From positions 40,299 to 104,298 of the forward strand of contig WJMJ01000123.1 of assembly GCA_014728035.1 (NCBI GenBank): a stretch of 64,000 nucleotides of DNA. Reading direction: 5' to 3'. The DNA comes from Promethearchaeota archaeon (lineage in GTDB: Archaea; Asgardarchaeota; Thorarchaeia; Thorarchaeales; Thorarchaeaceae). Positions 52,260 to 56,433 of the stretch are shown here, piece after piece. Below the pieces are notes generated by a model, which worked only from the letters and a program-made list of their open reading frames with translations, made no database searches and was not told the origin of the DNA. The first letter of the stretch is position 1; every line of letters starts with the position of its first letter. A program made the translations under genes and the position numbers.

Positions 52260-53303
52260 ATGAGAGAAGCATTGCTTTATACGAAAATTAAGGATGGAGT
52301 ACGCTGTGACCTCTGTGCTAGAAGATGTGTCATTGAAGAGGGCAAGAGTGGCTTTTGCAGAGTTAGAGTTCTAGAAGACGGAAAACTATACTCAAAAGTA
52401 TATTGTAAGATTGATGGAATGGCTGCAGATCCAATAGAAAAAAAGCCACTGTTCCATTTTGCTCCTGGCTCCAAAGCTTTCTCTATTAGCACATCATCGT
52501 GTAATTTTCGATGCAAATTCTGCTTAAATTACCACTCTTCTCAAAGAGAGGAACCTGTAGGACGTGAACTAACACCAAATAAGATAGTTGAGTTGGCTAT
52601 CCAAAATAATTGTGATGGTATTAGTTATACCTATACGGAGCCAACGATATTCATGGAAGTAGCGTTTGACACAGCAAAAAAATCTCATGAAAGAGGTTTA
52701 TACAACACCTTTGTAACTAATGGATATCAGACTCCTGAAGCTATAGAACTCATTGCTCCTTATTTGGATGCTGTAACTGTTGACTTCAAAGGAAGTGGAA
52801 ACAAGGAGTTCTATGAAAACTACATGGATGTTCCTAAAGTCAAGCCTATCTTTAACGCTCTTAAGAAGTTCAAGGAAGAAGGCATATTTATTGAAATAAC
52901 TAATTTGATTCTTCCTGAAGTGGGAGACTTGGAAAATGATACTACTCATCTGTCAAATTGGATTGTAGAAAATCTTGGTTCTCGTACTCCCTTGCATATT
53001 ACTGCTTTTTCACCAATGTACAAAATGCAGCACTTACCAAGAACAGATTCAGAAACACTGCAGCGTCATATTGAAATTGCTAAAAATGCTGGGCTGACTT
53101 TTGTCTATTCCGGTAACATTCCTGGTCATGATCACGAAAATACCTATTGTTTCAATTGTGGTTTCAAAGCCATTGAAAGATACTCGGTGTATCTTAAGAA
53201 AAACAACTTGAATGAGGCTGGTCACTGTCCAAAGTGTGATGCTGATTTGAACATCTCGGGAGTCAAGTGGATGGGGCATGGGACCGGTCGAAAGCTCTTC
53301 TAA
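52260..53303 (+). CDS. amrS: AmmeMemoRadiSam system radical SAM enzyme
   Basis: C.LC.R.C, DPIEKKPLFHF, CNFRCKFC, YTYTEP, VTNGY, YSGN, CFNC/CPKC. Confidence 0.9.
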   Translation: MREALLYTKIKDGVRCDLCARRCVIEEGKSGFCRVRVLEDGKLYSKVYCKIDGMAADPIEKKPLFHFAPGSKAFSISTSSCNFRCKFCLNYHSSQREEPVGRELTPNKIVELAIQNNCDGISYTYTEPTIFMEVAFDTAKKSHERGLYNTFVTNGYQTPEAIELIAPYLDAVTVDFKGSGNKEFYENYMDVPKVKPIFNALKKFKEEGIFIEITNLILPEVGDLENDTTHLSNWIVENLGSRTPLHITAFSPMYKMQHLPRTDSETLQRHIEIAKNAGLTFVYSGNIPGHDHENTYCFNCGFKAIERYSVYLKKNNLNEAGHCPKCDADLNISGVKWMGHGTGRKLF

Positions 53304-53407
53304 GCTGCAAATTGCACAAAAATAATCAGATTAGAATAATTTGTAACGCGAATGTTCATGTAGAAGCATCGAACTAAGTTTATTTAGGCTCTTGAAGTAT
53401 CGTTAAA

Positions 53408-54265
53408 GTGATGATGCAAGCAGAATTGGACGATGAGAAGGTTAGATACATCTCTATAGTCCGCAAAGAGGGCGGCGAGCCTATCATTGGAATACCTTAT
53501 CGAGAGATGAGTGTAGACCCTGATCTTGTTGCGTCTTTTGTTCTTGCAATTATCATTTTTGAAAATCGGCAGCTCAAAACCTTTACCAAAGAAGGATATG
53601 TTGTAATTATTGAAGAAGGTGAGCAAGTAGTCAGTCTTTTAATTATTGACCGGGTTGAAGATGACTCCGCGTATAGAACTACTTTAGCAAAAATGACAGA
53701 ACGATTTGAGTCTGAATACGAATCTCTACTTGATGCTTGGAAAGGGGATATTAGACCCTTTCGAGAGTTTGCTTTGGGGATTCTTGAATCCTTTCCATAT
53801 CGTATTCTGGATGAGTCATTGGTTCCTAAACTCGTAAGCAAGTCTGATGCTGCTCCTGATCATCGTTCTGAAATTCCGTGGAGCGTTGGAAAAACCCATG
53901 AGAAAATCCATAAGATTCTGAATTTTATTAACGGGAAACGGTCCATTGAAGAAATTGTCAGTACTTCAGGAATGCCAAAAAGCGAAGTAATGGCTATTTT
54001 TTCTTTACTTGACCGATATAATTGGGTAACACTATCTCCAAAAATCACACCCTCAGTGTGTTTGCAAAAAGTCACAAAACCACCCGATTTCCTTATTGCT
54101 GTATATGGAGAACAAATCTCCAATCTTGTTGAGTTATGTGATGGTACTCGTACACTTGGAGAAGTGAGTGATATGCTTCCCTACAGCATTGAGGTAGTAA
54201 CAGTCGTATCAAAAACCCTCATTGATTATGGTGTTCTTCGATACACCCCCGAGGAGGAGCAATGA
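53408..54265 (+). CDS. Longin-domain protein with two C-terminal winged-helix repeats (NPRL2/NPRL3-like architecture), copy 1
   Basis: Longin-like N-terminus (DPDLVASFV.AI, WKGDIRPF); ILNFINGKRSIEEI and LCDGTRTLGEV repeats. Confidence 0.65.
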   Translation: MMMQAELDDEKVRYISIVRKEGGEPIIGIPYREMSVDPDLVASFVLAIIIFENRQLKTFTKEGYVVIIEEGEQVVSLLIIDRVEDDSAYRTTLAKMTERFESEYESLLDAWKGDIRPFREFALGILESFPYRILDESLVPKLVSKSDAAPDHRSEIPWSVGKTHEKIHKILNFINGKRSIEEIVSTSGMPKSEVMAIFSLLDRYNWVTLSPKITPSVCLQKVTKPPDFLIAVYGEQISNLVELCDGTRTLGEVSDMLPYSIEVVTVVSKTLIDYGVLRYTPEEEQ

Positions 54266-54373
54266 TGAGTCTACTATCAGAGTCCAACAGAACTTGGATA
54301 CTTTTTTATAGACCAACAATGCAGAACTTGGAGGAGCAGTTACGTACCATCGAATTTATGTTTAGGAGTATGT

Positions 54374-55213
54374 GTGCATTTGGCTGTTGATGTATCTAGG
54401 ATAAGGTATGTATCAATAATTAGACTTGAAGGTGGTGAATCTATCTTGAGTCTACCATATGCCACCATGACCGTGGATCCAGATTTGATTGCTGGATTTG
54501 TTACTGCGGTCATCATTTTTGCTAAAACCCCTATTCGGACGATACGAAAAGCAGCTTATGATATCCTCATAGAGGTTGGTAAACAAGTTCTTATTCTACT
54601 TGTTGTCGACCCTGTTCCTGATGAAACCCCCTATCGAAACCAACTAAAAGAAATACTCAAGAAATTTGAAACTCGTTATGAGGAATCTCTATCAGACTTT
54701 GATGGTGATATCCGGCTTTTTCGAGAGTTTTGTTTCTCTATCCTTGTCCACTTTCCTTACCACCAAATAGATCATGATTTGGTCCCACTAAAACGTAAAG
54801 GCGAACAGATTCCATATAGAGTCGGTGAAGTGGACGAAAAGATGGAGGAGTTTGAGGATTTCATAAATGGTAAGCGTTCTCTCGGTGAGATTGTTAATCG
54901 AATTGCATTGACTGATGGAGAGGTCATGGCTGTCGCTTCAGCATTAGCCAAATTCAAATGGATTCACTTTAAGAAACCACTAACCAATAAAGATGTTCTA
55001 GTAAGACTAGAATGTGACCCCATGGTTATAGAGAGATTGAAAGCACAATATGGTAAACCCGTAGATGACCTGATTAGATGTTTCGATGGCTCTCAGGAAA
55101 TTCAGGAAATAACACAAACTTTGCCTTATGATACCAGTGCAATTTGGTTTCTAATCAATCTGTTAGTTGATACTGGATGTTTAGGTTTGGCGGGATTGCA
55201 ACCACTAGGCTAG
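54374..55213 (+). CDS. Longin-domain protein with two C-terminal winged-helix repeats, copy 2
   Basis: DPDLIAGFVTAV, FDGDIRLF, FINGKRSLGEI, CFDGSQEIQEI. Colinear with copy 1. Confidence 0.65.
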   Translation: MHLAVDVSRIRYVSIIRLEGGESILSLPYATMTVDPDLIAGFVTAVIIFAKTPIRTIRKAAYDILIEVGKQVLILLVVDPVPDETPYRNQLKEILKKFETRYEESLSDFDGDIRLFREFCFSILVHFPYHQIDHDLVPLKRKGEQIPYRVGEVDEKMEEFEDFINGKRSLGEIVNRIALTDGEVMAVASALAKFKWIHFKKPLTNKDVLVRLECDPMVIERLKAQYGKPVDDLIRCFDGSQEIQEITQTLPYDTSAIWFLINLLVDTGCLGLAGLQPLG

Positions 55214-56037
55214 AGTATTTCATCCTGTCCGGGAACTCCAACAACATCACTTCTACATTGTTTGCAATGGAGAAATTGGGGGATAAAACTACTTGTTTCG
55301 TTACGTGTTTTGTCCAATTCTTCTTGTGTTGGACTTCGATACCTTGTAGCACTATCCCATGGAATTAATGGTACAATGTTTTGTAATTTCGCACCGTGTT
55401 TCCGAATCTGTCTAGACAAATCCAATATTTCATTACCGTTGATTTCAGGAATTAAAATTGTATTAACTTTGATTAGAATTCCTGCTTCACTCGCATCACT
55501 GATACCTGAAAGTTGTGATTCTAGAATATGTGAGGCCATATCAGAACCAGTAATTCTTTTTCCTTTGATTACTATCCATTCATAGATTTTTTCTATAGAC
55601 GATTCTTTTACTGATGACATTGTGACAGATACTGTTTCTACATTCAATTCTACAAGTTTCGATACACATGATGAGAGTAGTGTTCCATTTGTACTCAAGC
55701 AGATCTTAATGTTTGGTTGGAAGCCTCTTATTGTTTCAAGAGTTCTGAAAGTTTCTTTGTTTGCAAGTGGTTCCCCAGGCCCAGAAACTGCAACTATTCT
55801 CAAATTTCCTCTTCTGGATAATTCATTGATACAACGTTTTGTTGCTTCTTCTGGACTCATGAGACTTCGACTGATTCCGGGTCTAATACCTGAATGGCAA
55901 TTGCTACCTAATCTATGATCACAATAGATGCATTTCACGTTACATTTTCTTGCAACTGGTAAGTGTATTCGTTCCCATCGGTCTCTAATCGACCAACAAG
56001 GATGATGCTGAAAGGGATACCTTTCTCCTATACTCAT
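55210..56037 (-). CDS. NifB-like radical SAM protein (SAM domain only)
   Basis: HPC, RIHLPVA, CNVKCIYC, SGPGEPLAN, LSTNG, CKQCRSD. Confidence 0.8.
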   Translation of the reverse strand: MSIGERYPFQHHPCWSIRDRWERIHLPVARKCNVKCIYCDHRLGSNCHSGIRPGISRSLMSPEEATKRCINELSRRGNLRIVAVSGPGEPLANKETFRTLETIRGFQPNIKICLSTNGTLLSSCVSKLVELNVETVSVTMSSVKESSIEKIYEWIVIKGKRITGSDMASHILESQLSGISDASEAGILIKVNTILIPEINGNEILDLSRQIRKHGAKLQNIVPLIPWDSATRYRSPTQEELDKTRNETSSFIPQFLHCKQCRSDVVGVPGQDEIL

Positions 56038-56040
56038 TTT

Positions 56041-56433
56041 TCATTCATATCTCTGGATAAGTCTTGAAGCTTCTCTAGCTACTCGTTTCGCATCGTTGAA
56101 TATCAATCCCAATTTTGCATTTTCTGGAGCTGTCACACAAAGAAGATAACCTCCTGGGATTGAAAGCACTATTGTAGTACCCAGATCTCCCTCAACAATG
56201 ATATTTCGCAAATTCCCTTGTTTCAATTCTTTGACTGCCTGTTCACCAGTAGAATAAATTCCTGCAACCATAGCTGCGATGGTTGCTTCTTCCATACCTC
56301 TATGGAAATGACTTTCAAGAGGGAGGCCTTCTACTGAGAGAATTGCAGCACCAAGGATTGGTGAATTTGTTGATAAGTCTCTAAGAAGTTCTTTTAGGAG
56401 TTCGGGAACATTTATTGCTGATGGACTTTCCAA
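56041..56433 (-). CDS. Roadblock/LC7 (MglB/LAMTOR-like) protein
   Basis: GAAILSVEGLP, IAAM, ELKQG.L..IIVEG, AKLGLIF. Confidence 0.9.
   Translation of the reverse strand: MESPSAINVPELLKELLRDLSTNSPILGAAILSVEGLPLESHFHRGMEEATIAAMVAGIYSTGEQAVKELKQGNLRNIIVEGDLGTTIVLSIPGGYLLCVTAPENAKLGLIFNDAKRVAREASRLIQRYE

Follow-up and report, generated by a model that had tools for sequence, protein, structure and literature searches.

Two adjacent genes of a Thorarchaeota genome encode NPRL2-like proteins, each built from a longin domain at the N-terminus and two winged helices that form the C-terminal lobe. They lie on a stretch of 64,000 nucleotides (nt) that was analyzed as a whole and is here called the window (GenBank assembly GCA_014728035.1, contig WJMJ01000123.1, positions 40,299 to 104,298 of the forward strand). 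The host genome (4.3 Mb, Asgard archaea) is 97.9% complete, and the window is part of its contig C94. We refer to the genes as copy 1 and copy 2. A previous sequence-only reading of the window had claimed a pair of paralogs here, and both open reading frames (ORFs) are indeed present, co-oriented and paralogous, with lengths of 285 and 279 amino acids (aa). The pair has the following features, given with the evidence for each.

53408..54265, + strand: copy 1, NPRL2-like protein of 285 aa with a longin domain and two winged helices (ORF, AlphaFold2, Foldseek)
53432..53800, + strand: copy 1 longin domain, residues 9-131, with the β1-β2 loop E-G-G-E-P (VIA-align, conservation in 120 orthologs)
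53801..53878, + strand: copy 1 linker with the invariant Pro140 ("VP" motif), aligned by HMMER to the "VPVF" stretch of NPRL2
53879..54049, + strand: copy 1 winged helix 1, residues 158-214, with an INGKRS motif (secondary structure, sub-threshold Pfam HTH_NPRL3 match, family profile)
54080..54247, + strand: copy 1 winged helix 2, residues 225-280, with a CDGTRT motif; acidic, isoelectric point (pI) 4.1 (structure, C-terminal-only profile)
54266..54373, + strand: spacer of 108 nt between the copies, with a T-rich TATA-like stretch and GGAGG/AGGAG (sequence)
54374..55213, + strand: copy 2, the 279-aa paralog (ORF, AlphaFold2, Foldseek)
54392..54760, + strand: copy 2 longin domain, residues 7-129, with the β1-β2 loop E-G-G-E-S (AlphaFold2 model, conservation)
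54809..55189, + strand: copy 2 winged helices 1 and 2, residues 146-203 and 214-272 (AlphaFold2 model, sequence)

The two proteins align end to end with 39% identity (E 3e-69). Copy 1, the spacer, and copy 2 all share one reading frame. Copy 1 closes with two in-frame stop codons in succession (54263-54268), and copy 2 is in frame 36 codons on. The start of copy 2 is ambiguous: it is either the GTG at 54374 or a site two codons further, as in the called protein P0188 (277 aa). Its stop codon overlaps the 3' end of a convergent gene for a NifB-like radical S-adenosylmethionine (SAM) enzyme by 4 nt.

Fold and sequence relationships

Both proteins are predicted to share the domain order of NPRL2 and NPRL3. 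NPRL2-NPRL3 (Npr2-Npr3 in yeast) is the longin heterodimer of GATOR1/SEACIT, which acts as the GTPase-activating protein (GAP) for RagA/Gtr1. AlphaFold2 monomer models were built from 63-sequence alignments and gave a predicted local distance difference test (pLDDT) score of 89.8 and a predicted template modeling (pTM) score of 0.84 for copy 1, and 93.8 and 0.86, respectively, for copy 2. In both models, the N-terminal elements follow the order β-β-α-β-β-β-α-α, which is that of longin domains and not that of roadblock domains. This domain is followed by a linker with the invariant Pro (VP) and then by two helix-helix-helix-strand-strand units. Structural alignment of residues 9-131 with VIA-align placed Sec22b at Z 15.2 (root-mean-square deviation [rmsd] 2.3 Å over 119 residues), with Fuzzy, VAMP7, Ykt6, sigma-adaptins, and a Lokiarchaeal longin at Z 12-14; this re-ranking is driven mostly by the longin domain and is uninformative on the C-lobe. 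The topology and these alignments bear out the earlier description of each protein as a longin domain, a VP linker, and two winged helix-turn-helix repeats.

Searches of the PDB with Foldseek, which used full-length models and thus placed the C-lobe within the whole chain, returned NPRL2, NPRL3, Npr2, and Npr3 chains of GATOR1/SEACIT as the best 13 matches of both copies (E 5e-8 to 6e-5, 318-368 aligned columns). Generic longins rank below these chains (E 7e-5 upward). The likeness to NPRL2 and NPRL3 asserted from the sequence alone is thus upheld, with no unrelated winged-helix family in the lead. In the ESM Atlas, the nearest models include only one named cluster from eukaryotes, "GATOR complex protein NPRL2" (template modeling [TM] score 0.47, residues 10-285). 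On the strength of the predicted structures, we conclude that the NPRL2/NPRL3-like two-lobe architecture is real. Npr2/NPRL2 chains rank first for copy 1 and for copy 2 alike, and therefore neither copy is the specific counterpart of NPRL2 or of NPRL3.

Sequence searches point the same way for the linker and winged helices. When each protein was compared singly with PDB sequences by phmmer, nothing meaningful was found. With a profile of 25 family members, human NPRL2 was the best of 177,635 PDB sequences (E 3.3e-4), and profile positions 122-204 were aligned to NPRL2 residues 158-239, comprising the linker and a winged helix. A C-terminal-only profile again ranked NPRL2 first (E 7.6e-4), this time with NPRL2 residues 167-237 placed on the second winged helix; yeast Npr2 appeared at E 0.03-0.04 in the family and C-terminal profile searches. 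Winged helices 1 and 2 repeat each other within the chain (xNGKRT and CDGxxT), and winged helix 1 is thus not the only possible place for the NPRL2 segment. Within that limit, the NPRL2 stretch that the sequence-only reading had quoted agrees with the HMMER alignment text from PDB entry 6ces_N.

Family models give fainter signals. Pfam HTH_NPRL3 matches copy 1 at E 2.3e-4, with 21.5 bits against a cut-off of 27.2 bits. Neither NPR2 (PF06218) nor NPR3 (PF03666) matches either protein or anything else in the 97.9% complete genome at E ≤ 1, and the same search found no match to IML1 (PF12257; DEPDC5). Identity to NPRL2 and NPRL3 is about 7-14%. Individual family members have weak matches to TrmB, MarR, ArsR, IclR, and HTH_24 models, the two window proteins score below threshold throughout, and the second winged helix has sub-threshold DUF742 matches in 5 of 25 members. 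The window proteins are acidic (pI 4.8 and 5.2), as is winged helix 2 (pI about 4.1).

An NPRL2-type arginine finger is not evident in the sequence of either copy. We take this finger to be Arg78 of NPRL2 (Arg84 of Npr2), in the β4-β5 hairpin. Residue conservation was determined from 120 orthologs of copy 1 and 120 of copy 2, and among these, the corresponding hairpin (E-E/V-G-x-x) holds no conserved Arg or Lys, the site of Arg78 being our assumption. Conserved basic residues occur in the α1-β3 loop, where copy 1 has R54 (100%) and copy 2 has R53 (100%) and R56 (98%), each paralog-specific. R32 is conserved (99%) in copy 1 only, while R90, R116, and R119 are common to both paralogs.

Catalytic GAP longins, though not NPRL3, carry a GP motif just before β2, spatially beside the arginine finger (PMC12290439); longins of the FLCN/SMCR8 type with both the motif and the finger were described in Asgard archaea in 2025 (PMC12290439). 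In the Thor proteins, the β1-β2 loop holds an invariant E-G-G-E, and the next residue is Pro in copy 1 and Ser in copy 2. Copy 1 thus has an invariant G23-E24-P25 at the start of β2, and copy 2 an invariant G-E-S. Judged by sequence, this asymmetry loosely resembles that of NPRL2 versus NPRL3, although the motif is G-x-P and not GP.

Distribution, duplication, and gene order

The window genes are members of a known Asgard family. According to the available excerpts of Liu et al. (bioRxiv 10.1101/2020.10.19.343400), an NPRL2-like family is present "in most Thor MAGs" (metagenome-assembled genomes; Fig. 5c), and Asgard archaea are without the TOR pathway. The asCOG category "NPRL2-like longin domain" is in standard use (PMC9834061). 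The NPRL2-like family itself is therefore already published for Thorarchaeota, as the sequence-only reading had cautioned might be the case. The available text of Liu et al. makes no mention of tandem paralogs, the timing of a duplication, the loss of copy 1, or GTPase fusions of this module.

The family is narrow, with 67 clusters at E < 1e-3 among 1.84 billion representatives. We searched 301 genomes of the phylum and found matches in 75 of the 76 genomes of the window's GTDB family. Across Thorarchaeota, copy 1 orthologs share 55-86% identity. Synteny was compared at 20 loci from 16 genera of the window's family. Fifteen of these 16 genera have the two copies side by side on one strand, so that the tandem arrangement, which the earlier reading had singled out for checking across genomes, is kept. 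The spacer measures up to about 139 nt; in several genera the genes overlap instead, by as much as 8 nt. The exception is genus g4 (G037, G027, and G098; 96-99% complete), which has solely a copy 2 ortholog at the site and has lost copy 1. At the g4 loci L058 (G037) and L059 (G027), which are without copy 1 and the DUF2797 gene, the copy 2 ortholog sits between two radical SAM genes. Single-copy relatives are found in G112, G048, and G007.

A maximum-likelihood tree of copy 1, copy 2, and relatives places the two paralogs in strongly supported clades (100/99 and 99/98). A third full-length paralog of the window genome, together with some other groups, adjoins copy 2 (95/91). The single-copy gene of the sister family (G112) branches outside copy 1 and copy 2 with moderate support (89/78), and members from other Asgard families branch deeper. 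Because the copies form sister-level clades and the G112 gene branches outside them, the tree indicates that the duplication arose inside Thorarchaeia, independently of the NPRL2/NPRL3 split. The pair thus parallels NPRL2 and NPRL3 and is not their ancestor, and the term "proto-GATOR1" used in the sequence-only reading does not hold for a duplication that is the lineage's own.

Three neighboring genes flank the pair; the first two are listed as neighbors and not as demonstrated members of a system.

55210..56037, - strand: NifB-like radical SAM gene (Pfam Radical_SAM, E 3.5e-14)
56041..56433, - strand: roadblock/LC7 gene (Pfam Robl_LC7, E 8.4e-12)
52260..53303, + strand: AmmeMemoRadiSam-system radical SAM enzyme, co-directional and upstream of copy 1 (NCBIfam TIGR04337, 298 bits against a 220-bit cut-off)

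The adjacency of the roadblock gene reflects inherited gene order. The sequence-only reading had correctly placed this gene on the opposite strand 0.8 kb downstream, without mentioning the intervening NifB-like gene, and had joined it to the pair in a candidate proto-GATOR1/Ragulator module. Convergent to the pair, the roadblock gene is one of a string of genes that run leftward: Top6B, Top6A, a coiled-coil winged helix-turn-helix gene, a gene for a 333-aa protein, the roadblock gene, and the NifB-like gene. An arrangement of 12 genes recurs unchanged in all 16 genera and for the most part in G112, and in three other genera at least 22 genes (window 41.6-63.5 kb) are collinear. The roadblock adjacency is no better conserved than that of topoisomerase VI. 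In nine contexts of family members outside the synteny block, a roadblock gene stands beside none, and the genome holds 14 roadblock genes. Given its convergent orientation and its place inside a collinear series of at least 22 genes, nothing about function can be read from the adjacency, and we reject it as evidence for a module. The collinear genes (window 41600-63600) share 30-80% protein identity, an unusually long-range collinearity for archaeal genomes so divergent.

Small GTPases and paralog-specific residues

The wider family is tied to Arf-like small GTPases. In the window genome, contig C45 (G000:C45) encodes a 622-aa protein in which an Arf-like GTPase domain (residues 122-254, Pfam Arf E 4e-18) is followed by a module of a longin domain and two winged helices, with 23% identity to copy 1 (E 4e-18). 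The same fusion of GTPase and module occurs in two other clusters. Deep-branching members in two other GTDB families lie in operons of overlapping genes with a 275-aa Arf-like GTPase, which is 38% identical to the GTPase part of the 622-aa fusion. Another family member begins 1 nt past a GTPase gene, and a 422-aa relative in the window genome lies just upstream of a Ras-like GTPase. Lastly, a TRAPP/Bet3-like gene (PF04051) comes 3 nt after the gene of a 370-aa member that carries one more winged helix at its C-terminus (L051 6001-7631). The surroundings of the members P0128, P0135, P0138, P0141, and P0152 are uninformative or are on short contigs. The GTPase connection made in the sequence-only reading thus holds for the wider family, through fusions and operons.

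The 622-aa fusion is itself part of a second tandem pair (G000:C45:134079-137824; L045 4079-7824), with a longin-like N-terminus and a 571-aa partner that matches the module profile (E 2e-24) and has no recognizable GTPase motif. Genes for an Eco57I-like and a C5 DNA methyltransferase lie just upstream. The operons in the two other Asgard families (L047 2926-7870, L043 5143-9358) share a conserved set of about six overlapping genes: a 352-aa winged helix-turn-helix protein, the longin-GTPase, one or two small proteins, the family member, and two small coiled-coil proteins.

At their N-termini, these GTPases carry an extension of approximately 120 aa that is matched by the longin profile of the family itself. 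The window genome encodes three further stand-alone longin-GTPases (G000:C37:133975-134793, C77:4254-5078, and C111:6227-7006). Together with a further one at L047 3981-4808, the longin-GTPases span 275-312 aa and are candidate partners of the pair. The genome has at least 38 Ras-superfamily matches. Matches to the Gtr1_RagA model are weak (best E 1.8e-7), and this model also rings in the E. coli and M. jannaschii controls.

Fixed differences between the paralogs are clustered. Thirty-five positions are at least 90% conserved in both paralogs yet with different residues. Residues 38-70 (α1-β3-β4) hold 15 of them (Fisher p 2.5e-7, for a range picked after seeing the data), and 6 more are in the last helix of winged helix 2. 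In roadblock and longin dimers, the central helix and the following edge strand form the dimer and GTPase-binding face. NPRL2 and NPRL3 pair through their C-lobes too. Together with the conserved tandem, this clustering lends indirect support to a pairing of the two copies.

Function of the pair

A platform for a small GTPase is the most likely function that we can predict for these proteins. On balance, we lean towards lineage-specific NPRL2-like paralogs that form an asymmetric longin platform, regulating or scaffolding a small GTPase encoded elsewhere. The encoded proteins are soluble and acidic, and each has the two lobes described above. Made together, they would form an asymmetric dimer in which the longin domains, and perhaps also the C-lobes, are in contact. 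Such a dimer may then bind one small GTPase out of the many in this genome and regulate it, or act as its scaffold. The best candidate partners would be the longin-GTPases, whose N-terminal domain is of the same longin type. [quoted passage not shown]

Several observations weigh against this platform. TM-scores to NPRL2/3 chains are low (0.31-0.41; rmsd 9-13 Å), as would be expected if the two modeled lobes sit at different angles. A longin-only profile found no NPRL2 match in the PDB, where the best sequence was MON1 at a non-significant E of 0.6; therefore, the arginine finger cannot be mapped from sequence. The window's 104-kb contig has no small GTPase gene, which makes any particular GTPase partner a guess. 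Finally, the copy 2 ortholog of genus g4 keeps 30-31 of 36 copy-2-specific residues, versus 24-33 in other genera, and the relaxed constraint that we looked for in this genus after the loss of copy 1 was not seen. Because g4 keeps these residues without copy 1, they are independent of copy 1, and a heterodimer is not obligatory.

The persistence of copy 2 alone in g4, with its paralog-specific residues intact, also fits proteins that do not pair with each other. Each protein could act singly or as a homodimer, for example by docking with its longin domain on a different longin-GTPase or on another partner, with the tandem merely recording the duplication. The single-copy relatives, the third full-length paralog elsewhere in the genome, and the TATA-like and Shine-Dalgarno-like signals that copy 2 has of its own in the 108-nt spacer would fit such independence. 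We nevertheless judge it rather unlikely, given that the genes stay adjacent and co-oriented in nearly all sampled genera, and overlap in several, and that the fixed differences cluster in the canonical dimer and platform elements of longins. Moreover, the nearest structural analogs (NPRL2-NPRL3, FLCN-FNIP, SMCR8-C9orf72, and Mon1-Ccz1) are all established paralogous heterodimers. A more specific form of the platform is a tentative possibility: a minimal paralogous longin heterodimer in the style of NPRL2/NPRL3, of about 280 + 280 aa, that evolved independently and regulates the Arf-like longin-GTPases with a non-canonical catalytic residue, such as R54 of copy 1 or R53 of copy 2. Another proposal, put forward from the sequence alone, is a forerunner of GATOR1 and Ragulator that comprises the pair and the roadblock protein, and in which the heterodimer serves as an arginine-finger GAP for a Rag-like GTPase and is ancestral to NPRL2/NPRL3. 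The NPRL2/3-like fold, the roadblock gene beside the pair in all sampled Thor genera and beside the single-copy gene of G112, and the loose likeness of the invariant G-x-P of copy 1, absent from copy 2, to the GP motif all speak for it. It is improbable in view of the duplication within the lineage, the convergent roadblock gene in its long collinear stretch and its absence beside members in the nine contexts outside that stretch, the β4-β5 hairpin without a conserved Arg or Lys, and the lack of NPR2, NPR3, and IML1 matches in the genome.

The winged helices invite two further explanations that do without a GTPase. Archaeal winged helices usually bind DNA, and the weak TrmB, MarR, ArsR, IclR, and HTH_24 matches, along with MarR chains in the PDB (E 0.015-0.05), would suit transcription factors with an N-terminal sensor domain. 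That the proteins are such factors seems quite improbable: they are acidic, most of all in winged helix 2, their putative recognition helices are hydrophobic or acidic, and their best full-length structural matches are NPRL2/3, whose winged helices make protein contacts. The fusion of relatives to GTPases, or their presence in operons with them, argues in the same direction. It also tells against the reading of the second winged helix as a PqqD-like RiPP recognition element (RRE; RiPP, ribosomally synthesized and post-translationally modified peptide), by which the pair would chaperone a substrate for the two flanking radical SAM enzymes, since members outside the synteny block adjoin GTPases and not radical SAM genes. 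Radical SAM genes do lie on both sides of the pair throughout the family, and there are weak matches to PqqD (Pfam in 2 of 25 members, E 8e-4; TIGR03859, E 0.004; both sub-cut-off) and to the RRE of LynD, MusD, and TruD (E 0.05-0.24). However, every match is sub-threshold, and winged helices are a generic fold; upstream, the enzyme is of the AmmeMemoRadiSam type and not a RiPP maturase, and the downstream enzyme is convergent and absent in G112. We consider this last reading highly improbable.

Comparison with known systems sets the Thor pair apart from each of them. Like NPRL2-NPRL3, it combines an N-terminal longin with a C-terminal winged-helix lobe in a paralogous pair, here known from genes and models, and its linker and a winged helix are similar to NPRL2 residues 158-239. 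Unlike NPRL2/NPRL3 (380-1150 aa), the Thor proteins have about 280 aa and are without their insertions; unlike GATOR1, they come from a genome with no DEPDC5/Iml1 match and from an independent duplication. In FLCN-FNIP and SMCR8-C9orf72, the longin heterodimer forms a cup for the small GTPase, and the catalytic subunit has a Gly/Pro loop before β2, where copy 1 has its invariant G-E-P. The Thor C-lobe consists of two winged helices and not of DENN, however, and the motif is G-x-P rather than GP. The longin superposes as well or better on those of Mon1-Ccz1, Fuzzy-Inturned, and TRAPP (Fuzzy Z 13.7, Mon1/Ccz1 Z 11), and one family relative is coupled to a TRAPP/Bet3-like gene. These are tri-longin or single-longin proteins without a winged-helix lobe, and because their platforms are GEFs, the fold alone cannot separate GAP from GEF. 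In MglB-MglA and in the conservons of bacteria (CvnB, roadblock; CvnC, DUF742; CvnD, GTPase), a dimeric platform of the roadblock superfamily regulates a small GTPase. The Thor domain is a longin and not a roadblock, the locus is without a GTPase gene, and the DUF742 matches are sub-threshold.

In eukaryotes, the small GTPases of membrane traffic and nutrient signaling are under the control of longin heterodimers such as GATOR1, folliculin, C9orf72-SMCR8, and Mon1-Ccz1, whose origin is a standing question in eukaryogenesis. Asgard archaea have a stripped-down NPRL2-type two-lobe protein, which they duplicated on their own into a conserved tandem pair. New here are the conserved tandem, the lineage's own duplication, the loss of copy 1 in one genus, and the clustered paralog-specific residues, together with the GTPase fusions and operons of relatives of the module and the negative result on the roadblock link. 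Should the copies prove to bind each other and to act on one of the lineage's Arf-like GTPases, they would provide a small soluble system in which to study longin platforms. If they form an independent heterodimer with a different catalytic residue, they would offer a convergent model, easy to reconstitute, for the emergence of paralogous longin GAP/GEF platforms.

Several minor features concern the genes around the pair and its relatives. The third paralog (L044 1351-3062, G000:C36) and a relative, P0128 (L050 4799-6523), are each convergent with a PAP2-family phosphatase gene, an adjacency kept across distant genomes. The NifB-like gene scores 232 bits to NCBIfam nifB, under the 344-bit cut-off. 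In every one of the 16 Thor genera, it shares its strand with the roadblock gene and follows that gene after 3 nt, and G112 is without it. In most genera, a DUF2797 gene separates the AmmeMemoRadiSam gene from copy 1 (as at L009 5071-5964, compared with window 53304-53407); it is absent in the window's genus and in G182. At one locus (L066, G155:C4; 6720-7596 and 8563-9407), copy 1 and the NifB-like gene are each broken into two ORFs, which could be due to a frameshift, an assembly error, or pseudogenization.

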